This document shows positions 29,912 through 47,279 of a DNA stretch of 53,461 nucleotides, piece by piece. The translations under genes and the position numbers were made by a program. The DNA is taken from NCBI GenBank assembly GCA_021799015.1, contig JAJZBH010000001.1, forward strand, positions 1 to 53,461, given 5' to 3'. This stretch comes from Pseudomonadota bacterium (GTDB lineage: Bacteria; Pseudomonadota; Alphaproteobacteria; Acetobacterales; Acetobacteraceae). Below the pieces are notes generated by a model. That model saw nothing but the letters and a program-made list of their open reading frames with translations, searched no databases and was not told the DNA's origin. Positions within the stretch are counted from its first letter, which is position 1; each line of letters opens with the position of its first letter.

Positions 29912-29988
29912 TGGCAGGGGTGGAGGGTCTCGAACCCCCAGCCTCCGGTTTTGGAGACCGGCGCTCTAGCCAATTGAGCTACACCCCT
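29912..29988 (-). tRNA. tRNA-Trp(CCA)
   Basis: AGGGGTGTAGCTCAATTGGCTAGAGCGCCGGTCT-CCA-AAACCGGAGGCTGGGGGTTCGAGACCCTCCACCCCTGCCA; full cloverleaf with encoded CCA end. Confidence 0.96.
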
Positions 29989-30087
29989 GCGGACCGGGCA
30001 GAGAAAATACGGGCGCAGACCCCGCCTTGCACACCGTGCGCGTCACGCTGTCAAGAGAGATCGCGGTTCGATGATCCGATCATCCGT

Positions 30088-30161
30088 TGGAGCGGGCGAT
30101 GGGAATCGAACCCACACAACCAGCTTGGAAGGCTGGGACTCTACCGTTGAGCTACGCCCGC
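30088..30161 (-). tRNA. tRNA-Gly(TCC)
   Basis: GCGGGCGTAGCTCAACGGTAGAGTCCCAGCCT-TCC-AAGCTGGTTGTGTGGGTTCGATTCCCATCGCCCGCTCCA. Confidence 0.96.
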
Positions 30162-30207
30162 TTTGCGGTAGTGGTCATAAGGCGGGCAGCAAGCCAAGAC
30201 AAGAGGA

Positions 30208-31023
30208 TCAGAGACGCCCCGCGATCGCGACCGGCGCGTTCTTGTAAAGCATATAGAGTGCAACAACAAATACGAGGCCCGCGAAGATCCGGTTCAGAGC
30301 GGTGCGGCGAGGGGAAAGTCGGATTGCGAGCCGCATGCCAAGTGCTCCGCCTAAAATGCCCCCGGCCACGAATTCCGCTGCCACCAACCAATGGACGAGA
30401 CCAGAAAAGGCGTAGTTGATCGCCGTCGTCAGGCCAAAAGTGCCGACCGAGAGCAGCGACGAACCGATCGCCAGGATCATCGGCATGCCCGTCGATACGA
30501 GCAGGCCGGGGACGATGAGAAAGCCACCACCAATTCCGAAGAAGCCGGAGAGTCCGCCAACGAGCAAGGCTGCCAGAACAACCAGAAGTATACTCTTGGC
30601 TCGCATCGCATCAGGACGCTGTTTCGTCTTTTCGTCTGCGAGTACAGGGGTATCAGCGGATTTACGCGGCCGCAACATCAAGGCGCCCACGACGATCATC
30701 AGGATTGCGAAAAGGAATAGCAGTTGCCGGCCGTCCATGATTTTGCCGAGCGTTGAGCCGACCGCAGCGCCTGCCATGCCAAAAACAGCGAAAAGAATGG
30801 CGCTGCCCCAGCGCACATTTCCTTTGCGGGCGTGCCCCGCAAAATTAGCGAAAGCGTTAGCGGAAACAGCGAGTGCGCTGGTGCCGATTGCCGTGTGTGG
30901 TGAAAGCCCAACAACATACAGCATCAGCGGTGTCGCCAAGATTGACCCGCCACCACCGATCAAACCCAGCGTGAATCCGACCATGCCGCCCCCCAGCAGG
31001 CTCAGCAGCGCTTGCGTCAGCAC
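30208..31023 (-). CDS. Sulfite exporter TauE/SafE family membrane protein
   Basis: Duplicated GLIGGGGS..P / GFFGIGGGFLIVP motifs, AIGTS / AIGSS, about 8 hydrophobic helices. Confidence 0.88.
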   Translation of the reverse strand: MLTQALLSLLGGGMVGFTLGLIGGGGSILATPLMLYVVGLSPHTAIGTSALAVSANAFANFAGHARKGNVRWGSAILFAVFGMAGAAVGSTLGKIMDGRQLLFLFAILMIVVGALMLRPRKSADTPVLADEKTKQRPDAMRAKSILLVVLAALLVGGLSGFFGIGGGFLIVPGLLVSTGMPMILAIGSSLLSVGTFGLTTAINYAFSGLVHWLVAAEFVAGGILGGALGMRLAIRLSPRRTALNRIFAGLVFVVALYMLYKNAPVAIAGRL

Positions 31024-31567
31024 GGCTGACGTTCCGACCGCACGTCCCCTTGAAGAGGCTTATTTTCTCGCGTGGCGGCACCCGAGACTCGATGGAAGGT
31101 CATTTCAACTGGCTGTTGGGTCATTAGGAGTCACTCTTTTCGGCATCAGCCATAGTTCGGCCTGGCGGCGGCAATCCTCCACCATGCTTTGATTCAGCAG
31201 GCATTCCGCGTCGCTAGACATATATATGATATATTGCAAGTATTCGGCCGCCTGTGCCCCCTCCGCACCACTTCGGGAAGGCGACCCAGCGAGCCAACGC
31301 ACAAGTCACGAAGCCGCCAGCGAAAAGACTGAAGTACTGCATACGCTGAACGAGCAGGAAAAGGGGCTCACGGAAGTGATCGCTGGCCACGCACGAAGAG
31401 GCCGCCGTGCTCCAAATCGTGGATCAACGCGGGCCGGAAGAACACCTTCGCTTGGCCGAAAGCGATGCCCTGGACGTTGCGTTAGCAACGTTCACGTCCA
31501 AACAGAAGCCCGCGCTTGCCCCAAAACGCGTACGCAGCCCAAAGTCACGCGGCCTCTGGCGCGTCGT

Positions 31568-32416
31568 TTAGCCGCGGCGAGCGGCAGCGGCGATCACCGT
31601 ATTTTCAAGCAGGCAGGCGATTGTCATCGGGCCGACTCCGCCGGGAACGGGGGTAATTGCTCCAGCGACGGACACAGCTTCACCGAAAGCGACATCGCCG
31701 ACCAGGCCTCCATCGGCGCCCCGGTTGATGCCAACGTCGATCACGGTAGCGCCTGGTGCAATCCAGTCACCGCGCACAAATTCAGCTCGACCGACTGCAG
31801 CGATCACGATATCACACCGGCGGCACTCGGTCGCGATGTCGCGGGTCCGGGAATGCGCAATGGTTACCGTAGCATCAGCGGCAAGCAGCAGCGAGGCCAC
31901 CGGGCGCCCCACGATGTTCGATCGCCCAAGGACGATGGCGCGTGATCCGCGCAGTGGTACCTCGGCCTCACGCAGCAAAAGCAGAATTCCACGCGGCGTA
32001 CAAGGAATCAGCCGGGGCGTTCCGAGCGCCAGGGCTGCGACGTTTTCGGGATGAAACCCATCAACATCCTTTAATGGATCGATCGCGCGCACGATCGATC
32101 CTGCGTCGATGTGCGAAGGTAGAGGGAGTTGCACGAGAATGCCGTCCACACCCGGATCCTCGTTGAGCTGCGCGATATAGGCGAGGAGGACTGACTGGGT
32201 CGTATCAACGGGCAGGCGGATTGTATTCGACTCAAACCCTACCTCGTGTGCCGCGCGTTCCTTGTTACGAACATACACGGTGCTCGCGGGATCCTCACCG
32301 ACCAGAATGACCGTCAAACCAGGGCGGTACGGCAGTGCCTGTACTGTTTCCGCGACTTTTGTCCGTAGCCTTGCTGCCACGGCCTTGCCATCGATGATAT
32401 GCGCGCCTCGCTGCAT
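31568..32416 (-). CDS. folD: Bifunctional methylenetetrahydrofolate dehydrogenase/cyclohydrolase
   Basis: [35 protein letters not shown] and PGGVGPMT. Confidence 0.97.
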
Positions 32417-32421
32417 GGAGC

Positions 32422-32727
32422 CTAGTGAAAACCGGACGTGATGAGAGAACTGTAAAGACCCGCCAGAAAGATCTGCAAGGCGCGGAGGAGAAGAAACACG
32501 ATGATGAAGGAGATATCGATTCCGCCCAATGGTGGGATGAATCGCCGCACAGGAGCGACGACGGGCGTCGTAACCCGGTCCAGAAAATCACCAATCATGT
32601 AGACGGTGCGGTTGCGGGAATCGAGAACGCCAAACGCTTCCAGCCACGAAAATATCGCCGCCGCGATCAGCACGTAGATCAAGATCTCGATGACCTCGTT
32701 GGCGAACCAGAAAATCGAATAGAGCAT
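32422..32727 (-). CDS. YggT family membrane protein
   Basis: FSWL...[24 protein letters not shown]; usual position upstream of folD. Confidence 0.88.
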
Positions 32728-32863
32728 TCTTGTCTCCTTGCGACATGATGCGGGTTACCCCAGGCCAGTGCCCCATGGCAATGCGTCGTGCGTGCTGTCG
32801 GCGCTCATGCCACGTGGACCACTTGACGGGCGCAGCCGGTTGCGCGATGCGGCAGGTCGGGAT

Positions 32864-32939
32864 GGGGCTGTAGCTCAGTTGGGAGAGCGCCTCGTTCGCA
32901 ATGAGGAGGTCAGGGGTTCGATTCCCCTCAGCTCCACCA
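32864..32939 (+). tRNA. tRNA-Ala(CGC)
   Basis: GGGGCTGTAGCTCAGTTGGGAGAGCGCCTCGTT-CGC-AATGAGGAGGTCAGGGGTTCGATTCCCCTCAGCTCCACCA; G3:U70 alanine determinant present. Confidence 0.96.
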
Positions 32940-32960
32940 TCCCTGTAGCATGAAGGTCGC

Positions 32961-34208
32961 ATGGCCGATCCAACCCGAGATGCCGCGTTTGACCTGATTT
33001 CAGCAGTGTTTGACCGACACAGTTCGCTCGATGCCGCGCTTGGTCGACTGCCACCGGGAACGGCACCGCGTGACCGGGCCGCGGCGCATCGCATTGCGGC
33101 GTCGGTATTCCGTCATGCAGGAAGTATCGACGCCATACTGGATCACCATCTTCGGCGCGCCCCGCCGCAAGCCGTGCGGCACATCCTGCGGATTGGCACC
33201 GCTCAAGTGGTCTTTCTTGAAACCTCGGCGCACGCAGCCGTTGGGACGTCGGTTGAATTGGCAAAAACCCGGAAACTTGCTCCTTTTGCCGGCCTAATTA
33301 ACGCCGTCCTTCGCCGGATTGCGGCAGAGGGCAAAAACGTCGTGAGCACGCTTGACCTGCCTCGCCTCGACACGCCCCCCTGGCTCTGGGCCTCGTGGGG
33401 CATCCGTGCGCGCGATATCGCAATCGCAAATGGGAAGGAAGCACCGCTGGATCTGTCGCTCATGCCCGGCGCCCAGCCTCCTCCTGGCGCTAACGTACTG
33501 CCGACCGGGACAGTCCGGCTGCCAACGGGCACAGATGTGACGGCTCTTCCCGGCTTTGCCCGCGGAGATTTCTGGGTTCAGGATGCCGCAGCGTCTCTGC
33601 CCGCAAGGACGCTCGGTAACGTACGAGGCCGGCGCGTTCTGGATCTGTGCGCAGCCCCGGGAGGCAAGACCGCACAACTCGCAGCGGCAGGCGCCCATGT
33701 TACGGCGGTAGATCGCGACGGGGATCGAGTCCGCCGGTTGCAGGAGAATCTTCAGCGGCTGAAGCTTTCCGCGGAGATCGTCGTTAATGATGCAGTCACC
33801 TACCGGCCCGCTGAAAAGTTTCCCTTTATACTGCTTGATGCACCATGTTCGGCCACCGGTACAATCCGGCGGCATCCCGAGATTCTCCTTCGACGCAGAC
33901 AGGACATCAGCGCCTGCGTTAAACAACAGAACCGGCTACTCGACGCCGCGCTGACGATGTTGGCGCCCGGGGGACTTCTCGCTTACGCCGTTTGCTCGCT
34001 CCAGTCGCCTGAGGGAGAAGGCGTTATTGATGCGGCGCTGGACCGTCACGCCCTCATGATCGACCCCATCGACGTGTCCATCATGCCGGGTCTCGCGGGC
34101 GCGATATCCCCGCGCGGTCTGTTGCAAACCGACCCCTCCATGTGGGCCGACCAGGGCGGCATTGATGGTTTTTTTGTCGCCCGCCTGCGTCGAACTCACA
34201 GCGCTTAA
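32961..34208 (+). CDS. rsmB: RsmB/NOP (Sun/Fmu) family RNA cytosine-C5 methyltransferase with NusB-like N-domain
   Basis: INAVLRR, WVQDAAA, LDLCAAPGGKT, LDAPCSATGTIRRHP and YAVCSL. Confidence 0.88.
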   Translation: MADPTRDAAFDLISAVFDRHSSLDAALGRLPPGTAPRDRAAAHRIAASVFRHAGSIDAILDHHLRRAPPQAVRHILRIGTAQVVFLETSAHAAVGTSVELAKTRKLAPFAGLINAVLRRIAAEGKNVVSTLDLPRLDTPPWLWASWGIRARDIAIANGKEAPLDLSLMPGAQPPPGANVLPTGTVRLPTGTDVTALPGFARGDFWVQDAAASLPARTLGNVRGRRVLDLCAAPGGKTAQLAAAGAHVTAVDRDGDRVRRLQENLQRLKLSAEIVVNDAVTYRPAEKFPFILLDAPCSATGTIRRHPEILLRRRQDISACVKQQNRLLDAALTMLAPGGLLAYAVCSLQSPEGEGVIDAALDRHALMIDPIDVSIMPGLAGAISPRGLLQTDPSMWADQGGIDGFFVARLRRTHSA

Positions 34209-34574
34209 CAAAGCTTTTTGTGTATATTGTTTGATATCGTACAATTTTAAACATGTCGCGGCGGCAACAGGACTCCGTCCACGAGCGCGCATAGCCGACA
34301 ACTTATAACAACCCCCGATCGCAACGTATTAAAGTTGCTCACGTTGGGATAGAGGCTTTTCTCTCGGCAAAACGCGCTGGACGCGAAATATCTCCGTTCT
34401 CAACTAGATTTTCGTCGAAGCTGTCAGCGCGGTGTCAGTCATGCGTGGCGTCGCGCCCTCAAGCACCTTGACATGACGAAAGACGAAATCGTGCTCAGAT
34501 TATATTCTTGTTAGCTTTCGAAATATCGAAAATGGGACTGGCGTGCGGTATATGAGGCATGTATAAGGCTCGTT

Positions 34575-34907
34575 ATGGCTACGAAGAAATCTGCCCCTCA
34601 CGAGACGGTCGGTCAGCGCATTCGCGCCCTCCGCCTCGCCAATAACCTTACGCAAGATGAATTTGCAGACAGGCTCGGCGTGTCGCGGTCCGCCATAGCG
34701 CAGTGGGAGACGGACCGTGCCGGTCAGGTTCGTGAAAATCTCGAACGGATCGCAAAGGTTCTCGGAACATCGCTGGCTTATCTGGTGTCCGGCGAAACCG
34801 GGTCGCTACAAGGTGACGAATTGGCCCTGATGCGCCTCTATCGTGCCTGCGCTTCGGAAGATCGCCAAATTCTGCTGCGTACGGCGAAACGGCTGGCGCG
34901 AGGCTAA
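34575..34907 (+). CDS. XRE-family helix-turn-helix transcriptional regulator
   Basis: GQRIRALR...LTQDEFADRLGVSRSAIAQWE; no peptidase domain. Confidence 0.88.
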   Translation: MATKKSAPHETVGQRIRALRLANNLTQDEFADRLGVSRSAIAQWETDRAGQVRENLERIAKVLGTSLAYLVSGETGSLQGDELALMRLYRACASEDRQILLRTAKRLARG

Positions 34908-35032
34908 AACACGCGAAAAACGGATCGGTTCGCCGGTTGTTTTTCCGGAGTTTCGTGATTTGGCTCCATGCTGGACGATGCAGTTTGGTACGCCAGGCTC
35001 GCCGAGCCACGTTGGGCAGCGGACGTTAACAG

Positions 35033-35779
35033 TTGAGCAAGCAAGGCAAGACCCGCGCAGATGCCTTGGTCGTTGTCAGCGGGTTGCTACCTTCCAGAAC
35101 CCAGGCAGCTGCTGCCATCATGGCAGGGCAGGTTTATGCCGGCGATCGACGGATCGATAAGCCGGGTACACTTATCCCGACCGGTACCCCCCTTACAGTG
35201 CGCGGTTCTGCACATCCATGGGTTTCACGGGGCGGCATCAAACTTGCCCACGGACTCGATCATTTTGGATTCACACCCGCCGGCCGGATCTGTATCGACA
35301 TCGGGGCGTCGACGGGGGGATTTACCGACGTGCTGCTCTCACGCGGCGCCGCGCTGGTGCATGCTGTCGATGTAGGACATGGGCAGCTGGCCTGGAAACT
35401 CCGACAAGATCCTCGTGTTGTCGTGCACGAAAAAACGAATGCACGCACCCTCGATTCGTCACTGATCGCGGAACCGGTTCAGTCGCTGGTCTGCGATGCC
35501 AGTTTCATTGGGCTTCGCACCGTTTTGCCCGCAAGCCTGGCACTGTGCACAGGCGGAGCATTTGCCGTCGCTTTGATCAAGCCGCAGTTCGAGGCCGGGC
35601 GCCAACACGTTGGCAAAGGGGGCGTGGTACGAGAGCCTGCTGTCAGACAAGAGGTCGTCGCGATGATCGAGGCATGGTGGCAGAGCTTGCCGGGTTGGCG
35701 CGTTATTGGCGTGACCGAAAGCCCGATCACGGGGCCGGAAGGGAATGTCGAATTTCTGATTGGCGCGGTGCACGAGTAA
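35033..35779 (+). CDS. tlyA: TlyA-family rRNA 2'-O-methyltransferase (S4 domain plus methyltransferase)
   Basis: WVSRGGIKL, DIGASTGGFTD, DVGHGQL, LIKPQFE and SPITGPEGNVEF; TTG start. Confidence 0.92.
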   Translation: MSKQGKTRADALVVVSGLLPSRTQAAAAIMAGQVYAGDRRIDKPGTLIPTGTPLTVRGSAHPWVSRGGIKLAHGLDHFGFTPAGRICIDIGASTGGFTDVLLSRGAALVHAVDVGHGQLAWKLRQDPRVVVHEKTNARTLDSSLIAEPVQSLVCDASFIGLRTVLPASLALCTGGAFAVALIKPQFEAGRQHVGKGGVVREPAVRQEVVAMIEAWWQSLPGWRVIGVTESPITGPEGNVEFLIGAVHE

Positions 35780-36312
35780 CAAAAGGATTTCCTTTTGATG
35801 CTTGCGCGTGGTCAGCGGCTGACGGTAACGCAAAGCCGTTTATCCCCGGGCAACCAAATTGTACGGCAAGTCTCGGAGGACGGAGCTTCCGGGGTACGCC
35901 AGGGCGAACCATGCTTCTCATTTTCACACGGTCTTTTTGCTACCATCAGATTCTGCCCGTGTATGCCGCCTTCCGGCAGAACCTGACAACTTGTTGGACC
36001 GATCGCCACCGCCTGCCGTGCGCCAACGTTTGCCTCTTGAAAAGAGGCCCGGCACCACAAACCATAGACGGCAGGCGTTCAATCACCGCAGAATGGCGTG
36101 ATGGCTCATCGCATCGAGGCCACGACTGACACGTCGAAACGCTCTTTGAGATGTTATTGCCGATGCCCGCTTCCCATACACAGCTGCTAACAACCATGTT
36201 GATCCTCAGCTAACCGCTAACGGCGAGGCACGCGAACGCGCAGCTGCGCCCGCGCTTTCGACCACCAATGAATCGGGGCCCGAAACAACTGAGCGTGAGC
36301 ATCCCCCTGTAT

Positions 36313-36333
36313 AACCCGGAAGCTCCGGGTTTT
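36313..36333 (+). terminator. Possible intrinsic terminator or hairpin in the long tlyA-porin intergenic region
   Basis: Perfect 8-bp stem AACCCGGA-AGC-TCCGGGTT followed by TT. Confidence 0.3.
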
Positions 36334-36549
36334 CCCCATTGGGCTTGCATCTGCGTTCGGGGTGTTGTCCGGTTACCGCCCAAAGCTCAAAAATCTGGAA
36401 TTTGAACACGCGTTTGCGTTTTCGTCTCGCCAGGTCCTTTTTCAGCACAAAAATTGGAAATCGGCTGAATAATGAGCAAATCGACTTGAAATTGGCGATG
36501 ATGCGTGTAATGCTTTTTTTATAATCAAAGCGTTACGGGAGACTGCGTA

Positions 36550-37506
36550 ATGGCCAAGCGGGGTTTGCGAAATCCGAGCCAGAAGGCGCGTCCGGCGCTG
36601 GCTGCGGGTGCCATTCTGGCCGCGTTCGTCATTGCAGGCAGCACGGCTCACGCGAGCATTCCTCTTCCTTACGATTTTCCGGCGCCCCCGCCGAACCTCA
36701 ATGTCGTCGCGTTTTACAACGAGTTTTCCTCGGCCAATAGCTTCTACACGCCCAATGGGACGCGGATCCAGGATTCCCGGATTCAAGCCGATGTCTCGCT
36801 CGTCCGGCTCATCCACACCTGTTCGCCGATCGACGGCATGCCGTGGGGCGTCCAGGTTCTGGTGCCCTACATCGCCTACCTCGGCAGCCAGCAGGTGTTC
36901 GGCGCTACGCAGTCCGCCAACAGCGGTTTCGCCGAGCCGCAATTTTCTGCATTTATCTACCCCTATAGTAACCCGAGCGAGGACTCGGCGCTGGCCATTT
37001 CCTACTTCCTCAGCCCGCCGGTCGGCTCCTATGGTGCCGGTTATACGTTGAACGCGGGTACCAACAACTGGGTCAACAATATCGAAGTGCTGTACAGTCA
37101 TATGCTTTTCGGAACCCCGAAAGGTCGGCGGCTGGAACTCGACATTGCCGGTGATGCGTTTTTCTACAGTGCAAACAGCAATGTCGGCGTGGGCCCGTTC
37201 CGGCCAGTCCTGCATACAGAACCTGCCGAACAGGTCATCGTATACCTGCCGTACGTGATCTATCCCAAAACCGCCGGTTATGTCGGCCTTACTTTTGAAC
37301 AAACCTTCGGCGGCAAACAATATCTCTCGTACGCCGGCCAGTCTATCGATACCGGCAACCGCAATGACGCCACGCAGATTGGAGTCGATTTTGGCTCTTT
37401 CGTTGCCCCAACCGTGGCCATCGAGGGACAGGTTTCGACGGACGTCAAGGTGCGCGGCGGACCGAAAGGTAGCGCTTTTTTGTTCCAGGCCATCAAGGTG
37501 TTCTGA
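36550..37506 (+). CDS. Outer-membrane channel, MetA-pathway-of-phenol-degradation / QbdB-like transporter family
   Basis: Signal peptide (AHA), PYDFPAPPP start, QVLVPY, SGFAEP, PVGSY...NAGTNNW, alternating beta strands and C-terminal Phe. Confidence 0.7.
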   Translation: MAKRGLRNPSQKARPALAAGAILAAFVIAGSTAHASIPLPYDFPAPPPNLNVVAFYNEFSSANSFYTPNGTRIQDSRIQADVSLVRLIHTCSPIDGMPWGVQVLVPYIAYLGSQQVFGATQSANSGFAEPQFSAFIYPYSNPSEDSALAISYFLSPPVGSYGAGYTLNAGTNNWVNNIEVLYSHMLFGTPKGRRLELDIAGDAFFYSANSNVGVGPFRPVLHTEPAEQVIVYLPYVIYPKTAGYVGLTFEQTFGGKQYLSYAGQSIDTGNRNDATQIGVDFGSFVAPTVAIEGQVSTDVKVRGGPKGSAFLFQAIKVF

Positions 37507-37695
37507 ACGCCACTCTCATATTACGTAAACTGGCCAAGCCATTTCATAACCCTGCATGGACCGAGATTTGCGGCTTGTGGCAGTAGAGCCGCACACCGGT
37601 TTACCCGGCAGGATCGCAGACCCGAGACCAATTCACTTCAGCCTGGAACGCGGGTCCGGGGGGTCGCGTGGCGTCAGGCAGCCCCACCTCCTCTC

Positions 37696-37938
37696 CTAAT
37701 GATCGACCCCGAATTGCTGGAGGCGGCGCTCCTGCCCTTTCGCCGCAGTCTTCTTGCTGGCCAGAGCACCATCCTTCAATCGGCTTGAATCCACCACGAA
37801 GTTGACGGCGACAAGATCAATGTAAAGGCCAAAATCTTGCAACACCGACCTGCCGCGCTCCTCTTGTTTGTTCGAAAGCATCGCCGCGTTGCACATGACG
37901 GTGTAAAGCGACCGCGCTGCCGTCAAAGGCCCGTTCAC
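37696..37938 (-). CDS. Small hypothetical protein (80 aa)
   Basis: GTG start overlaps the stop of the DUF4142 gene (GTGA); no recognisable motif. Confidence 0.3.
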   Translation of the reverse strand: MNGPLTAARSLYTVMCNAAMLSNKQEERGRSVLQDFGLYIDLVAVNFVVDSSRLKDGALASKKTAAKGQERRLQQFGVDH

Positions 37939-38465
37939 TCGGCAACACCTTTAGGCATCGCAGCCCGCAACATGTCGAGATTACGCTCGAGCAATGGCGT
38001 CGTCCGCTTGGCAATGGCTTTGAACTCGGGATTCGTCCCATTCCAAGCCTCGTCCCTGAACACCGCCAGTGCGCTTTCGTGGCTTGAGATCTCGTCGCGG
38101 AGAAATTCAACCGAAATGTCGGGCTCCGGGTGGTAGGTCAGCGACACGAGCAATGCCTTGAACTCGATCGGGAGAGCGTCGGGCAGACTGACACCATTAC
38201 GGGAGGCAAGCGATCTGATCACCGGTTCGTATTTCTCCGCGTCTGCGCAGATCTTATCAGCTGCAGGCTTCACTTCCGGAGTGAGGTTGCTTTTCTGAAC
38301 GATGCTGCACGCAGCAAGATCGAAATGAACCAGTTGATAGGCCGCGGTAACAAAGTTCAGATCCTGCGCGGAAACGTTAGCTGTCGTTGGCGCTTGCGCT
38401 GTTGTCGTGCAGCCAACGAGCCCCAGCAAACCTGCTACGACCCCAAACCGTGCCAATCGAATCAT
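37935..38465 (-). CDS. DUF4142 (ferritin-like) domain lipoprotein
   Basis: AAGGAG RBS before the ATG at 38465, lipobox LVGC, SAQDLNFV..A, LASRNGVSLP, H...VF..EA..G.NPEFK..A...P.L pattern. Confidence 0.78.
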   Translation of the reverse strand: MIRLARFGVVAGLLGLVGCTTTAQAPTTANVSAQDLNFVTAAYQLVHFDLAACSIVQKSNLTPEVKPAADKICADAEKYEPVIRSLASRNGVSLPDALPIEFKALLVSLTYHPEPDISVEFLRDEISSHESALAVFRDEAWNGTNPEFKAIAKRTTPLLERNLDMLRAAMPKGVAE

Positions 38466-38649
38466 GGCCTTGATCTCCTTTTCCGATCTACACACCCGAC
38501 GCAAGAACAGCAGGCTGCCCGCCCTATCCCCTCGCGGTCGCATGCGGCGCTCCCCGGATACGCCTACCGACTGTGGCAAAGAACCTGCCCCGCGTGAAGG
38601 GAAATTCATCCGGACGACATGAAAAACCGCGACAGAAGCAGTCGCTGTC

Positions 38650-38726
38650 TGGTGACCCCGGCGTGACTCGAACACGCAACATCCTGCTTAGAAGGCAGGT
38701 GCTCTATCCAGTTGAGCTACGGGGCC
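38650..38726 (-). tRNA. tRNA-Arg(TCT)
   Basis: GGCCCCGTAGCTCAACTGGATAGAGCACCTGCCT-TCT-AAGCAGGATGTTGCGTGTTCGAGTCACGCCGGGGTCACCA. Confidence 0.95.
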
Positions 38727-42831: not shown

Positions 42832-44394
42832 TCAGAACGATGTGCCCATTACGAGAAACACTTGGTTACGGTCAAAATTTACAACGGATTCTTCTGAAAT
42901 CCGCTGCGTGTACCGATAATCTACGCCGAGATATAGGCTCGGGTTGAAATAATATCGCGCGCCAACCGACATGTCCGCCTCATTGTCCCATCGCGATGTC
43001 TGAACGAAATCACACCGTGCGAAAGCAAGGCGTATGAACGCCGTCAGGCTGGACCACAGATCCTGCTCCAGCCGACCGCCCACGACCGTGTAGATATACG
43101 CCGGGCTTCCCGGGAGCGTGGTCTCCTCGATTGAGCGGTCGAGAAAGAGAAGAGCAGCCGTGCGTTTAGTGGCCTGCCAGCGGACGTAACCGTCGCTGGC
43201 CACTGTCGTGATGCTCTTGAAGCGCGAGTCCGCATAAGCGCGCCCCATAACCCCGATAAAGGCCTCACCGGAAACGTTCGACGAGACGGCAAAAAGCGTA
43301 CCCAGACCGCTGCGATAGCCACCAGAATTACGGAAGTAGCCGAAATCGTCCGGGCTCTGATCATAGCGCCGGACGTCACCCAACGCCTCCACAAACGGCC
43401 GAAACGCCGGCTGGGCATCATCGCGCAGGAGCACGCCAAACGTAAAGCGATTGCGATCGCGGTCGTGGTTGTCGATCAGCCCGTGGAGCCCTTCAACGTT
43501 GCCGAACGTCAACCGCTCCACGGCACCGCCGACCCGCAGGCTAAAATTACCGAGCCGGCGAACCACACCCACATAGCTGTTCAACTCGCGATAGGGTGTC
43601 GGCGTTAACCCCTCGACGGCATCCGGCGAAAAGCGGTCCTCGTGCTCGCTCAAAGTCTGCACACCGAGAAGAATCCGTGTGCTGCGACTCGCGTCGATAT
43701 GCCCCTCGGCTCCCAGGTGCCAGTCGATCATATTCTCGCTTCCATGAGTCCAGTAACCGGAAAGATCTGTTCCTGCGTTCACCTGAAGCGAGCTATGGGC
43801 CCAGTTTGACTCGGCAATTATGTTCGGGGAGATCGTGCCCACAACGTCCGATACGCGCCCCGTGCGTGTCGCATAAATGTTGCTGTCATAAAATGAACCG
43901 GCCTGCAGCGTCGGGTAGAGCGTGAACGATCCGACCTTGTACCCCGGCCCGCCGATGTCCGGGGGTTGCGTCGCGCCGGTGCCGATCGTGCGTGGTATTG
44001 GCGATGGCATAACGCGGATGTCTGTCACGATGAACTGTTCGAGAGCCCCGTCAACGGCGATCCGCACCGCCTGACGTTGCGCCAAAGGGGCGGCTCTGAC
44101 AATTCGATCAGCAATTTCCCGATAGACTGGCAGATTTGCACCCTCGAAATCCGGTACCGGCGCTGCCGCAGCGGCCGCCAGCGCTGCTGCCGAAGCCGGC
44201 GTTGCTGCGAGTGCCGGTTTCGACGCCAAAAGCTGGGAAAGCCCGTCGAGCAAGGCACGCGGACCATTTTCCGCCGTCGCCTCGAGGCGCCGGTCAACAC
44301 CGCTGCTCAGTGTCGCCGCGATCGCAGCCACCGGCATCAGTCCTGCGGCCAAGGCAAACAACAATCCGAAAAACCGGGACGGGATCAGTGGCAT
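42832..44394 (-). CDS. Outer-membrane beta-barrel protein (beta-barrel porin-2-like) with an extra N-terminal helical domain
   Basis: GGAGG RBS before the ATG at 44394, signal peptide, barrel starting at GSFTLYP...YDSNIYAT, amphipathic strands, C-terminal FDRNQVFLVMGTSF. Confidence 0.8.
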   Translation of the reverse strand: MPLIPSRFFGLLFALAAGLMPVAAIAATLSSGVDRRLEATAENGPRALLDGLSQLLASKPALAATPASAAALAAAAAAPVPDFEGANLPVYREIADRIVRAAPLAQRQAVRIAVDGALEQFIVTDIRVMPSPIPRTIGTGATQPPDIGGPGYKVGSFTLYPTLQAGSFYDSNIYATRTGRVSDVVGTISPNIIAESNWAHSSLQVNAGTDLSGYWTHGSENMIDWHLGAEGHIDASRSTRILLGVQTLSEHEDRFSPDAVEGLTPTPYRELNSYVGVVRRLGNFSLRVGGAVERLTFGNVEGLHGLIDNHDRDRNRFTFGVLLRDDAQPAFRPFVEALGDVRRYDQSPDDFGYFRNSGGYRSGLGTLFAVSSNVSGEAFIGVMGRAYADSRFKSITTVASDGYVRWQATKRTAALLFLDRSIEETTLPGSPAYIYTVVGGRLEQDLWSSLTAFIRLAFARCDFVQTSRWDNEADMSVGARYYFNPSLYLGVDYRYTQRISEESVVNFDRNQVFLVMGTSF

Positions 44395-44446
44395 CGGACA
44401 AACCTCCGGAACCCCGTTACACTTCGCGAAATTGCTTAACGCCGCT

Positions 44447-44460
44447 TTGATCAAAATCAA
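44447..44460 (-). promoter_or_regulatory. FNR/FixK box upstream of the beta-barrel gene
   Basis: Perfect TTGAT-CAAA-ATCAA, centred about 60 nt upstream of the ATG at 44394. Confidence 0.75.
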
Positions 44461-45179
44461 AAGAAAAAGTTTGCTCGCGCCTCGCCAACCCGGGGATCCA
44501 GCCGTTAAGGCGCTCTCTCACATCCGTCAGAGACTGGTTCAGTATTGATCAGGATGGGAACACCGACTGTGCGCCGGCGCGGATGCACCAGTGCGTCGAA
44601 TACTGCCGTTTATCCTCGTTATCTGTGCAAGGCATACCGTTTCAAGCGGTAATTCTTCCCCATCGACGATGCCGGGTTCCGGCGAAGAGGCACAGAGCAA
44701 CTTCAGCCACTGGCAGAAGGGTACTCCGTCCAAAATTACTGATGCTTTTTGCTGATGCCTTTGCCGACATTTGGCGATATCGGTCCCCGGCTACTTCCAT
44801 CGTCCGTTCACAACACAAGCCGTCACGGCCCGCGTTCTCGCTGAAGGAAAGAAGTGGACCAGAACCTGAACATGCAATAATGTACCGGCTAGCCGGCAAT
44901 TCTTAAGAATTTCGAGAGGGCGGATTCGTTTGCTCGGATGACGCCGAAACCAGCTTCCGAACCGACACCATACATCCCCAAATCACCCCACCCGAAAGGG
45001 TCGGACAAGAACGACGGCGTCGATATTTCCACACTCACCCGTACGATCAGGAACGGAGAGTTATGAACCTGTTTCAATCAGGGAAATCGGACCGACTACA
45101 AAAATAAATGGTGCCTTTCGTGGAGCCTATTCAAGACGAACGGTGAATGGCGCATGCGTCACTTCGCCGGGTAACATCC

Positions 45180-45221
45180 TTGACATGGATCAACGACGCT
45201 TTGGCCAATGTTCTGTATCTT
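45180..45221 (+). promoter_or_regulatory. FNR/FixK box plus -10 element (class II promoter) for the three-gene operon
   Basis: TTGAC-ATGG-ATCAA at 45180-45193. Centring it at -41.5 places TATCTT (45216-45221) exactly at -12 to -7. Confidence 0.72.
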
Positions 45222-45291
45222 ACGCCAAATCGCGAAGACCGCCACGCGCCGGCCGTTTGCTGGCATTGCTGTTGGGTCTGATGTTGTTGTC

Positions 45292-45804
45292 ATGCTTGGA
45301 AAAAAACGCGGCGCATCTATCACGGTTGTTGTTGGCCTCGTGGTCGCGGCGCTGGCGTGGCCTGATTCGATCCTGGCCCAGGCCACTTTGCAGCACAACT
45401 CCGCGTCGAGTCGGCAGGCGCTGTTTGGACGCTCATGGTGTGGCGACTATAAATTAGGTAATCTCACGGCCCGTCAGCGCCTTCAGGGAAAAAACCTGGC
45501 ACGTCTTCAGGCGGTGGAAGCACGGCTGGCGCCCGGCTTGGAGCCTGCCAATACAAACGAACTCCATCTTCTCTCCAATTACCAGGAGGAGCTGGAAAAG
45601 CGGCAGCCGGATCCGGTGTTGGCCGGAACATATCTGGGGTTGGCAAGTTCGTTGCCGATTACGCAACCGCTCTATCGTGATGTTAACAAGCTACTCTGCG
45701 TCAGCACGACCCACGCTCTCGGAAGCGCGATCCGCGCCGCTGCCGAAGCGGCGCGCAGGCCGGATAACGCGGCGTCAACTACAAACGGGAAAATCCACCA
45801 ATGA
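45292..45804 (+). CDS. Exported hypothetical protein (170 aa)
   Basis: Sec-type signal MLGKKRGASITVVVGLVVAALAWPDSILA|Q; two Cys; ATGA overlap with the next gene. The ORF-track start at 45208 would fall inside the predicted promoter. Confidence 0.7.
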   Translation: MLGKKRGASITVVVGLVVAALAWPDSILAQATLQHNSASSRQALFGRSWCGDYKLGNLTARQRLQGKNLARLQAVEARLAPGLEPANTNELHLLSNYQEELEKRQPDPVLAGTYLGLASSLPITQPLYRDVNKLLCVSTTHALGSAIRAAAEAARRPDNAASTTNGKIHQ

Positions 45805-46340
45805 AAAGCCGTTTCGCCTTGACGACAGGGTCAGTCGACGTCGGGCGCAGGTGCTTCGTTAGAGTCTTGGGCGCTTTTTCGCTGCTGCTGGTGCTGCCTG
45901 GTGCCAGCTTTGCACAGGAGCACAGCGGCGGCGAGTCAGGCGCGCACGGCGAGGGAGAGGCGGGTGCCGGCGCCGGGCACGGGAATGGCGCCGGAGAAGG
46001 GCACGGTGGCGGACACGGTGAGGGTGAAGGGGGCGGTGGCGGACACGGCGAGGGTGAAGCCGGCGGCGGCGGCATGGGTCAGGGCAAAACTCCTGCGCAA
46101 CGTGCCGTTCGCCACCGGCAGCGTACAGGTCGGACGATGGGCGGTGGCGAGTCCAACGGCGGGCATACAGGGACCGGCGACGCCGGAGCTGGGGAAACCA
46201 CCACGTCCACTGGATCCACGGCTCTTCCGTCCGATGGTGCAACGACAGGGCCGATTGGAGGCGACACCGGTGGCGAACACTTTGTCCACCAGGGCCAAGG
46301 GCCGTGGGGCGCTGACACGAAGGTCCTTCGGCGCAAATGA
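45801..46340 (+). CDS. Tat-exported Gly/His/Glu-rich low-complexity protein (179 aa)
   Basis: GRRCFV twin-arginine motif, hydrophobic core and SFA|Q cleavage site; HGEGE repeats; translationally coupled to the previous gene. Confidence 0.72.
   Translation: MKSRFALTTGSVDVGRRCFVRVLGAFSLLLVLPGASFAQEHSGGESGAHGEGEAGAGAGHGNGAGEGHGGGHGEGEGGGGGHGEGEAGGGGMGQGKTPAQRAVRHRQRTGRTMGGGESNGGHTGTGDAGAGETTTSTGSTALPSDGATTGPIGGDTGGEHFVHQGQGPWGADTKVLRRK
46004..46059 (+). repeat. 30-nt-period tandem repeat encoding GGGHGEGE units
   Basis: CGGTGGCGGACACGGTGAGGGTGAAG (46004-46029) and CGGTGGCGGACACGGCGAGGGTGAAG (46034-46059), one mismatch. Confidence 0.85.
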
Positions 46341-46382
46341 GCCGGTGTTCATACCTTGCAACATAAGAAAAGGAATCTGCAC

Positions 46383-47279
46383 ATGACCCAGAGAAAGAAA
46401 TCAACGTCGGCAGTTAGGCGAATCCTGTTGGGTTCTGCCGCCGTGGGCATCGCAGCCTGGATGCCGCAACCAGTGTGGTCGCCGCTTCACGGGGTTGGAT
46501 ACGCCTATGCCCAAGGCACCCAACAAGGCGGCGGCGGTTCTGCTACCCATGGCAGCGGAAGTGGCGGCGGCCACGCCCCCGGTACGGCAGGATCGGGGAT
46601 GGGCCGCGGCGGCTCAAGCGCCGTGCATGGTCACTATGGGCAAGGGGGGTCCACTGGTACCGAGACAGGTGAAACGGAACCCAGTAGCGACAAGAAGGGA
46701 CCGCGTTATGGCGGTGGGGAAACCAGCCGCCAGCCTGGGGAAGGCACGACTGGTGGCCGGCCCGTCTGGGCAAAGGAAGGAATTCCGGAAGTTGAACTCG
46801 GACGGCTGAGCGTGGCCCGTTCGCCTGCGTCGGTGCTCAATCACGCCTTCGACGAAGTGGTGAGCAACTGGTCGACAACGGGTACAACAATACTAACGCT
46901 GACGGCCGAGGGTCAGCCAACACTGACCATGACCGTGTCCGAACTTTATTCACTGCCGGCCCTCGAATTCGCTCGCATTGTGGAAACGTATTATTCCACG
47001 GTCGTGCGTATTGACTCGCCGCTTGAAAACCTTGCGCTTCTTAAGAATCTCGGACAGACGGGCACGACTCCCCTAACCGGTGTAACAATGGCCAGCTCAG
47101 ATGACATGGCCGCCATCTTGCTGGGATCAGCTTCCGATAAGGAAATTCCGATCACGACGGATACGGTTACAGCCGTATACACGATTCTTGGCATTCCAGT
47201 CCCGTCCGGAACCGAACTGACGACCGTCGCCAACGAGGCGGAGGCAGTTCGGGTCGCAATCCTGGCAGGTCACGGATAG
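46383..47279 (+). CDS. Exported hypothetical protein with Tat-like signal, Gly/His-rich linker and conserved-looking helical C-domain (298 aa)
   Basis: AAGGA RBS before the ATG at 46383; VRRILL...AYA|Q; domain GRPVWAKEGIPEVELGRLSVARSP...RIDSPLENLALL...LGSASDK...ILAGHG. Confidence 0.8.
   Translation: MTQRKKSTSAVRRILLGSAAVGIAAWMPQPVWSPLHGVGYAYAQGTQQGGGGSATHGSGSGGGHAPGTAGSGMGRGGSSAVHGHYGQGGSTGTETGETEPSSDKKGPRYGGGETSRQPGEGTTGGRPVWAKEGIPEVELGRLSVARSPASVLNHAFDEVVSNWSTTGTTILTLTAEGQPTLTMTVSELYSLPALEFARIVETYYSTVVRIDSPLENLALLKNLGQTGTTPLTGVTMASSDDMAAILLGSASDKEIPITTDTVTAVYTILGIPVPSGTELTTVANEAEAVRVAILAGHG

Follow-up and report, generated by a model that had tools for sequence, protein, structure and literature searches.

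The window analysed here is a stretch of 53,461 nucleotides from an Acetobacteraceae bacterium (contig JAJZBH010000001.1 of assembly GCA_021799015.1, positions 1 to 53,461), and our subject is a four-gene module within it that encodes an outer-membrane β-barrel and three proteins predicted to be exported, here termed A, B and C. The module is flanked by a pyruvate carboxylase gene and, on the other side, by a DUF983 gene followed by Entner-Doudoroff genes. As a first-pass annotation of this DNA had described, the genes form two divergent units with an FNR-type box before each, at 44447-44460 and 45180-45193. We find this module to be a conserved and undescribed four-gene unit built around a barrel whose family is itself known, and very probably a genuine FNR-box module that joins a barrel to an unannotated family of helical proteins. 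Its features are as follows:

42832..44394, (-) strand: outer-membrane barrel gene, start ATG at 44394, stop at 42832, 520 amino acids, GGAGG upstream
44447..44460, no strand assigned: FNR/FixK-type box TTGATCAAAATCAA, centre about 60 nucleotides ahead of the barrel start
44461..45179, no strand assigned: inter-box spacer of about 720 nucleotides, single-copy in the genome, 53% GC, no family or protein match
45180..45193, no strand assigned: FNR/FixK-type box TTGACATGGATCAA, about 100 nucleotides ahead of the protein A start
45292..45804, (+) strand: protein A, 170 amino acids from ATG, Sec-type signal
45801..46340, (+) strand: protein B, 179 amino acids, ATGA overlap with A, GRRCF twin-Arg signal, 10 His
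46383..47279, (+) strand: protein C, 298 amino acids, signal peptide with VRRILL, GHG at its end

Proteins A, B and C all have predicted signal peptides and no match in Pfam or NCBIfam. The coupling of a Sec-type A to a B of the twin-arginine translocation (Tat) type, described in the first-pass annotation, is borne out by the ATGA overlap of their genes and the twin-Arg signal of B. An alternative TTG start of the barrel gene, giving 542 amino acids, would overlap box TTGATCAAAATCAA. The base composition of the window shows no step at the module, and scans for sigma-70 promoters and terminators returned matches at chance level only. The spacer is about 600 nucleotides longer than usual, relatives with two boxes mostly having 60-95 nucleotides between them; that of locus L008 is also longer. 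We found no description of the module in a literature search whose scope left subscription journals largely outside and did not cover supplements, where regulon tables by locus tag might be found.

Conservation of the module and exchange of its barrel

C has 209 matches in species genomes, and the best (closest) 80 of these together with the window make up the 81 loci that we analysed with our own gene calls and profiles (1078 genes called, 152 locus proteins scanned). In 65 of the 81 a barrel gene lies next to that of C, encoding a BBP2 barrel in 41 cases, a member of one 8-stranded subfamily in 21 and an Omp25-like barrel in 3; nine of the 16 loci without a barrel are near contig ends. The order barrel-A-B-C was found in 27 loci and, as the flanking genes vary among loci, the unit appears to be self-contained. 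Two of the 18 genomes of the host genus (the host, G000, and G013) have both C and the barrel; neither was found in the other 16, some of which are incomplete. Across 401 surveyed genomes of the class, domain-level C matches were recovered in eight, after exclusion of four genomes in which only the Gly-rich tail matched (G060, G108, G215 and G237). The seven further domain-level matches from this survey, one of which repeats a counted locus, all lie beside a BBP2 barrel, and six of them either form fusions with 8-stranded domains or are truncated inside one. Taken together, these patterns support the earlier proposal of a dedicated module of co-occurring genes. The nearest named carriers are Acidocella and related Acetobacterales, followed by Roseomonas, Paracoccaceae, Rhizobiales, Pandoraea and gammaproteobacteria, and cultured carriers include Acidocella aminolytica, A. 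aquatica, Thioclava atlantica, Defluviimonas aestuarii and Oricola nitratireducens.

The barrel of the window, the sole BBP2_2 gene product of the host genome, matches Pfam BBP2_2 (PF10082) with an E-value of 4e-92 and 309 bits against a cut-off of 23.7, over profile positions 3-374 of 378; the 520-residue outer-membrane barrel of the first-pass annotation is hence confirmed, with the correction that its family was already known. It consists of a signal peptide, an N-terminal helical domain (residues ~31-123), a flexible linker and the BBP2_2 barrel proper (147-516). Its AlphaFold2 model has 18 predicted strands (mean predicted local distance difference test score, pLDDT, 84.5) and matches AlgE with a Z-score of 20.0 (root-mean-square deviation 4.4, 308 residues aligned), tied at Z 19-20 with MOMP, chitoporin and Occ porins, so that the model would fix the fold class and not the cargo. 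For the N-terminal helical domain neither Pfam nor PHROGs gave a match, and profile comparison revealed no similarity to A or C; the domain is present in 33 of the 41 BBP2 barrels (one cut by a contig end). Sequence searches of the PDB with the barrel, A, C, the C paralog D discussed below and the 8-stranded partner returned nothing significant.

The barrel partner of C is thus swappable, being an 18-stranded barrel, an 8-stranded barrel or a fused form. The BBP2 profile found no match in two genomes in which C is paired with the 8-stranded barrel only (G425 and G426), nor in a third with a broken 8-stranded gene right after C (G427). Five genomes have a C locus lacking a barrel: besides G427, G449 has a second C in an operon with an 8-stranded barrel and a box, G428 and G455 have a more distant copy elsewhere, and G445 has none. 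The 8-stranded partner subfamily was recovered at E<=1e-25 in one of the 401 survey genomes. As C exchanges 18-stranded, 8-stranded and fused partners and occurs in genomes without a BBP2 barrel, it is unlikely to be the obligatory cargo of a large pore; the earlier suggestion of secretion through the barrel, taken as an obligatory route through the 18-stranded form, does not fit these genomes. By these comparisons C tracks a dedicated barrel and not a fixed pore size, and the swap fits a small ligand or an anchored partnership better than it fits passage of C through the pore. In a separate observation, a Porin_2 domain is joined to one of the 8-stranded partner barrels (L028:8666-10726); the portion of a preprint drawn on here (10.1101/2021.02.17.431615) treats multi-barrel chains with 8-stranded domains as a known architecture.

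Secretion or surface display could nonetheless take a less strict form, in which C and A leave via the barrel or a general route and sit on its outer loops as a low-oxygen adhesin, coat or fibre, with B acting in a CsgF-like manner. A barrel encoded next to small, Gly-rich exported proteins is reminiscent of curli and type XI secretion, the 18-stranded barrel resembles export pores such as AlgE, and invariant residues of the 8-stranded partner apparently lie in outer loops; this partner also weakly matches the model of the Rickettsia adhesin Adr (E 1.4e-6, far under the cut-off). Moreover, C is often duplicated, and two relatives of A have a doubled common unit, as polymer subunits might. Yet an 8-stranded barrel has no protein-conducting pore, and the fusion of one A relative to a peptidoglycan-binding domain points inward. 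Furthermore, A, B, C and the barrel have no Pfam or NCBIfam match to CsgG or curlin repeats, and Slam was matched only by two distant fused barrels at E 0.003-0.008, below the cut-off, the window barrel having no Slam SlipAM/DUF560 match at E<=0.1. We therefore consider surface display or secretion possible but rather unlikely.

Membership of BBP2_2 also raises the possibility that the barrel exports or anchors a polysaccharide, like other BBP2_2/EpsL-like barrels, together with a short outer-membrane polysaccharide export (OPX) protein whose gene lies elsewhere; A, B and C would then be accessory or merely co-regulated. EpsL and PEP-CTERM barrel models match the barrel weakly, below cut-off, AlgE is its top structural match, OPX genes are present elsewhere in 40 of 43 carriers, and glycosyltransferases lie near the barrel in four loci; Wzi likewise has an N-terminal helical bundle, according to the passages of PMC9601211 used here. 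However, a single OPX query that recovered five of six control regions found no OPX gene in any of 89 loci. Among the conserved neighbour clusters and the 152 scanned locus proteins (of 1078), no Wzx/Wzy/Wzz or ABC synthesis genes were seen. As no OPX gene was found in them, the loci do not appear to correspond to a polysaccharide export locus, an identity that the first-pass annotation had singled out as contrary to its proposal. In addition, PF02563 has no match in G000 (94% complete), G431 and G461, eleven relatives in the genus have OPX genes but no match to the window barrel, and the switch to an 8-stranded barrel would be left unexplained. All 12 other genus members tested have OPX genes, and the missing one in G000 may reflect incompleteness of that genome. 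On balance a role in polysaccharide export is very improbable.

Several features of individual loci are recorded here. Module genes are broken by a transposase inside B (L013:5990-8000) and by frameshifts in C (L023:8001-8989) and D (L088:8400-9564, L034:5450-7440), and a remnant of an 8-stranded barrel lies downstream of C in L080. A small exported helical protein, Q (IYGSQLM..ER..YR), adjoins C in seven of the 81 loci (L017, L027, L029, L034, L050, L054 and L076), is also found in L087 and L090, and has no Pfam match above cut-off. A MacAB-like HlyD/ABC/FtsX set is directly beside the module in five loci (L027, L029, L032, L070 and L084), and in one Acidocella lineage (L008, L009, L011 and L025) the module adjoins genes for a TsdA-like diheme cytochrome and a cytochrome c, upstream of ribonucleotide reductase. 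In the window itself four tRNA genes (Trp, Gly, Ala and Arg) lie at 29912-38726. The tRNA-Arg gene, which is separated from the module by 4 kb and the pyruvate carboxylase gene, is therefore not an obvious integration site.

The helical family of proteins A, C and D, and protein B

The AlphaFold2 model of C comprises a disordered Gly-rich N-terminal region of about 120 residues and a mostly helical domain (~135-298, pLDDT >90 over 141-298). C has at least 427 relatives, and a longer paralog of 370-460 amino acids, D, which combines the core in common with C with insertions, has at least 1191, both being minimum numbers of clusters at 90% identity from sets that may overlap. Eight residues, R141, R146, D211, N216, D252, K253, D260 and H297, are each at least 90% conserved in 120 C and in 120 D sequences. 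A is homologous to the C-terminal half of C, namely the last 70-85 residues of the helical domain (hhalign 97.8%, E 1.3e-12); in the alignment the polar set that is invariant in C has been lost from A, and two Cys, which likely form one disulfide, are invariant. A has 116 matches among 50%-identity representatives, two of which (P0174 and P0188) are unrelated repeat proteins and were removed, and two of its relatives contain two copies of the unit common to A, C and D. From these relationships we infer that C is the site-bearing subunit and A its site-less partner.

Foldseek searches of the PDB and BFVD with the C model gave no match at E<=0.001, and the best VIA-align match has a Z-score of 3.2 (root-mean-square deviation 4.4, 103 residues aligned), which is not proof of a new fold. 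As no clear match stood out among the structures listed, a heme- or metal-binding helical bundle of the cytochrome b562/c' or SmbP kind may still be compatible with C. The ESM Atlas holds only 'hypothetical protein' clusters, PHROGs, plasmids and phages gave no matches, and no longer fused forms of C were found, the last being weak evidence. As a Tat-like motif occurs in 29 of 119 C and two of 117 D relatives, the family appears to be mostly Sec-type; hence the description of C as a Tat-like protein ending in GHG stands for its end and for the VRRILL motif, whereas the Tat type is not conserved. Lipoprotein signals are absent from the 119 C relatives and present in three of the 117 D relatives.

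The fusion mentioned above joins an A relative to the OmpA peptidoglycan-binding domain (OmpA_C), and in three of the 8-stranded barrels the N-terminus, which is periplasmic in barrels, bears a comparable Gly/His tail. These two weak clues hint at a periplasmic location of the partners. The fusion would also suit a structural scaffold, in which the helical proteins and the barrel stiffen or tether the outer membrane in low-oxygen dormancy and bind no ligand. The long flexible Gly/Ser/Gln tails, the Omp25-like partners in three loci and neighbours typical of low-oxygen stress islands are compatible with such a scaffold, as are the glycine-zipper and Pal-like lipoproteins that also follow boxes in the host genome (labels partly from motif). 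Against it, an invariant polar set held across C and D at ~35-45% identity or less would exceed what is usual for a passive scaffold, lipoprotein signals are rare and the module is patchy within the genus. A purely structural role is accordingly unlikely in our estimation.

Protein B has two conserved motifs, RHR..GRTxGGGE and GGEHFVH..GxW..DxKVLR, in addition to Gly/His/Glu repeats. All 19 close relatives of B have the twin-Arg signal, as expected of a Tat substrate, and B is the only module protein for which Tat export is conserved. The C-terminal motif is present in 29 of the 81 loci and the His motifs in 24 of these 29; distant forms without the twin-Arg signal have CP(Y/F) and FVC where the His motifs stand. 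A disulfide swapped for a His-bridged metal would explain both this exchange of His and Cys and the use of Tat. B accompanies only barrels that have the N-terminal helical domain: it is present in 28 of these 33 loci and in one further locus cut ahead of the barrel, and in none of the 32 other barrel loci. The His-richness earlier described for the protein coupled to A is borne out for B, with 6% His. Outside B it is modest, the tails of C, D and the long A forms being rich in Gly, Ser, Gln and Thr with ~3% His against 2.3% in the proteome.

FNR-type boxes and their setting in the host genome

The pattern TTGAY-N4-RTCAA gave two matches against 0.17 expected, a number equalled in one of 100 shuffles; with a looser, one-mismatch pattern the same two boxes are unremarkable alone (1.4 expected). 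In the host genome TTGAT-N4-ATCAA occurs 23 times against 1-5 times at seven other spacings, and on this count the site appears to be in real use there. Of 75 loci, 49 have an upstream FNR-like box that deviates from the pattern by no more than one mismatch, where the flanks of the same loci predict 0.022 per search window; six loci with too little upstream DNA were left out. As expected of an FNR/FixK regulon site, TTGAT-N4-ATCAA stands upstream at a conserved position, and in close relatives two boxes lie within the divergent intergenic region. Furthermore, four Roseomonas-like loci have a CRP/FNR-family gene between the barrel and A, and Usp, Hsp20, M50-CBS and P-type ATPase genes are neighbours in several loci.

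By its sequence motifs the host genome encodes candidate cognate regulators of both kinds. An FNR-like protein (G000:C180:22670-23449) has C-x2-C-x7-C, a fourth Cys and an ETVSR helix, its best match being FnrL at 167 bits, under the cut-off of 300, and a FixK-like protein is encoded at G000:C87:8432-9262; each gene has a box at its own 5' end. Elsewhere in this genome boxes precede genes for a hydrogenase small subunit, an ALA-synthase-like protein, c-type cytochromes, Hsp20/GroEL and the FNR-like protein, most of these labels having been read from sequence and not from library matches. The predicted control of the module by FNR, and with it induction at low oxygen as first proposed, accordingly agrees with boxes conserved in most loci and with a genome that holds an FNR-like regulator and a recognisable low-oxygen regulon.

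Boxes in the host genome also precede a cluster for a Tat-type molybdopterin reductase that includes a rhodanese-like gene, and likewise a YeeE/YedE-like pair and a [NiFe] hydrogenase operon (G000:C141:648-7931, C89:1016-2091 and C103:370-4583), which possibly serve anaerobic sulfur and hydrogen metabolism, again with labels mostly read from sequence. A strong match to uptake-type [NiFe] hydrogenase was found in nine of 43 carriers and two of 11 non-carriers and is not obligate. Other genes behind boxes encode small Tyr/Gly/Met-rich proteins and glycine-zipper lipoproteins (G000:C172:4143-4743, C194:671-967, C105:2863-3465 and C134:1525-2088), and a glycine-zipper gene also lies 3' of C in L001, L004 and L005. 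Two 461-residue proteins with an N-terminal CxxCH and a porin-like body (G000:C82:7716-9101 and G000:C87:12858-14243; L092 and L093) each follow a perfect FNR box by ~88 nucleotides, one of them being followed in turn by a cytochrome c gene. These CxxCH-porins, which have no library match and which we take by motif to be of the Cyc2 type, are present in 16 of the 18 genus genomes.

The low-oxygen setting bears on the idea that the module conducts electrons to Fe(III) or another extracellular acceptor without a cytochrome, in which case C would carry a non-covalent redox cofactor and the barrel would insulate the electron path. Besides the FNR-type control, a barrel with a periplasmic partner resembles porin-cytochrome conduits, the C-terminal His of C is invariant, and one locus has an MtrB/PioB gene downstream. 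In the portion of PMC8790237 drawn on here, the mechanism of Fe(III) reduction by heterotrophic acidophiles is described as still open, and the process as oxygen-inducible in some species. Against this, no CxxCH or Fe-S motif was found: in agreement with the first-pass annotation, CxxCH is absent from the four module proteins, and also from 119 C, 117 D and 106 A relatives. Moreover, the module occurs in two of 18 genus genomes against 16 of 18 for the CxxCH-porin, which has its own boxes in the host, MtrB/PioB is present in four of 43 carriers and hence not obligate, and an 8-stranded barrel cannot house a conduit protein. An electron conduit is consequently improbable, and the link to Fe(III) reduction earlier envisaged for an acidophilic host was not recovered, many carriers belonging by name to marine or soil neutrophile lineages.

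Proposed function and comparison with known systems

Based on these observations we tentatively propose, as the best of several readings of the sequences and models, that FNR induces the module and that its products form a periplasmic complex, anchored on the barrel, for the binding of a small ligand. Low oxygen would act through the FNR-type boxes to switch on the barrel and the A-B-C genes, whose products would assemble at the outer membrane. The helical protein C, once exported, would attach to its own barrel on the periplasmic side, and its invariant Arg/Asp/Lys/His site would accommodate the ligand, for which a metal ion or heme-like cofactor is the likeliest candidate. A would be a disulfide-stabilised partner subunit that has lost the C-type site, and B a Tat-exported adaptor or plug of the 18-stranded barrel, with its two motifs bridged by a His-bound metal. 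Oxygen control, periplasmic location, docking and the nature of the ligand are all predictions of this proposal. It is a more doubtful, if attractive, extension that the module represents a new class of low-oxygen envelope machine, in which the A/C/D family with a ligand or catalytic site, interchangeable barrels and a Tat-exported metal-bridged adaptor would carry a cofactor, metal or protein across the outer membrane, or display it there, with no part played by OPX, TonB or c-type cytochromes.

Several points weigh against a ligand-binding periplasmic complex under FNR control. Boxes were found in five of the 10 D-type loci checked, and nitric oxide- or redox-sensing regulators of the CRP/FNR family read similar boxes. 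The loci are related to one another, though spanning several families, and the counts overstate their independence; on a quick tree of C, barrel type switches about 14 times. The loci have no conserved transporter of the inner membrane, nor a conserved TonB or redox enzyme. Three twin-Arg B proteins (L030, L033 and L040) have neither the His nor the Cys form of the motifs, the low His content of the C, D and long A tails speaks little for metal binding, and the invariant residues of C could be structural, as helix caps or salt bridges. The clues to a periplasmic location amount to one fusion and three tails, and W61, D69, H120, W169, R171 and R181, invariant in the 8-stranded partner, appear in outer loops, where a surface role fits equally.

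Irrespective of its function, the module defines a large unannotated family in alpha-, beta- and gammaproteobacterial lineages that is tied to a dedicated barrel and to FNR-type boxes. It places BBP2_2 barrels outside polysaccharide export and presents a single partner family with barrels of very different size. The invariant residues are targets for mutagenesis and, with the cultured carriers, make a low-oxygen envelope function testable. With eight of 401 class genomes, it is an accessory module and not a general answer to Fe(III) reduction by acidophiles.

Among known systems, the BBP2 family is presumably linked to short-OPX/EpsL systems, a link with which the weak EpsL match of the barrel agrees. 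The module is similar to the short-OPX translocons with 18-stranded barrels (EpsX-EpsY and EpsL-like) in its BBP2_2 membership, 18 predicted strands and AlgE-like fold. It differs in having no conserved OPX, Wzy or Wzz, and in its unrelated helical partners, its FNR boxes and a barrel replaceable by an 8-stranded one. The passages of PMC9601211 and PMC9603273 used here describe 18-stranded barrels as short-OPX partners in polysaccharide export, and neither passage names BBP2.

Like curli (CsgG, CsgF, CsgA/B) and type XI secretion (Slam), the module places a dedicated outer-membrane pore beside small Gly-rich exported proteins. Unlike them, its barrel is neither CsgG nor Slam, its partners are predicted to be α-helical with no curlin repeat or β-barrel cargo domain, and its C occurs also without a large pore. 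B, mostly disordered with a short conserved end, is in our assumption CsgF-like. As in PcoB/CopB-type metal barrels, ZraP and SmbP, some relatives have periplasmic His/Gly segments on the barrel, and Q, which has no Pfam match, is presumably a Spy/ZraP-like helical protein. In contrast to the PcoB/CopB type, there is no conserved multicopper oxidase or metal ATPase, the control is FNR-like and not CusR/CueR-like, and the tails are weakly His-rich.

Finally, the module has in common with the porin-cytochrome conduits (MtrAB, PioAB and Cyc2) a barrel with an exported partner and, by prediction, low-oxygen control. It departs from them in the absence of heme c motifs (CxxCH in none of 342 A, C and D relatives), in having 18 or 8 strands against 26-28, and in being tied neither to MtrB/PioB nor to the genus-wide Cyc2-like gene. 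For low-oxygen iron redox chemistry in this genus, the box-preceded CxxCH-porins would be a better candidate than the module.

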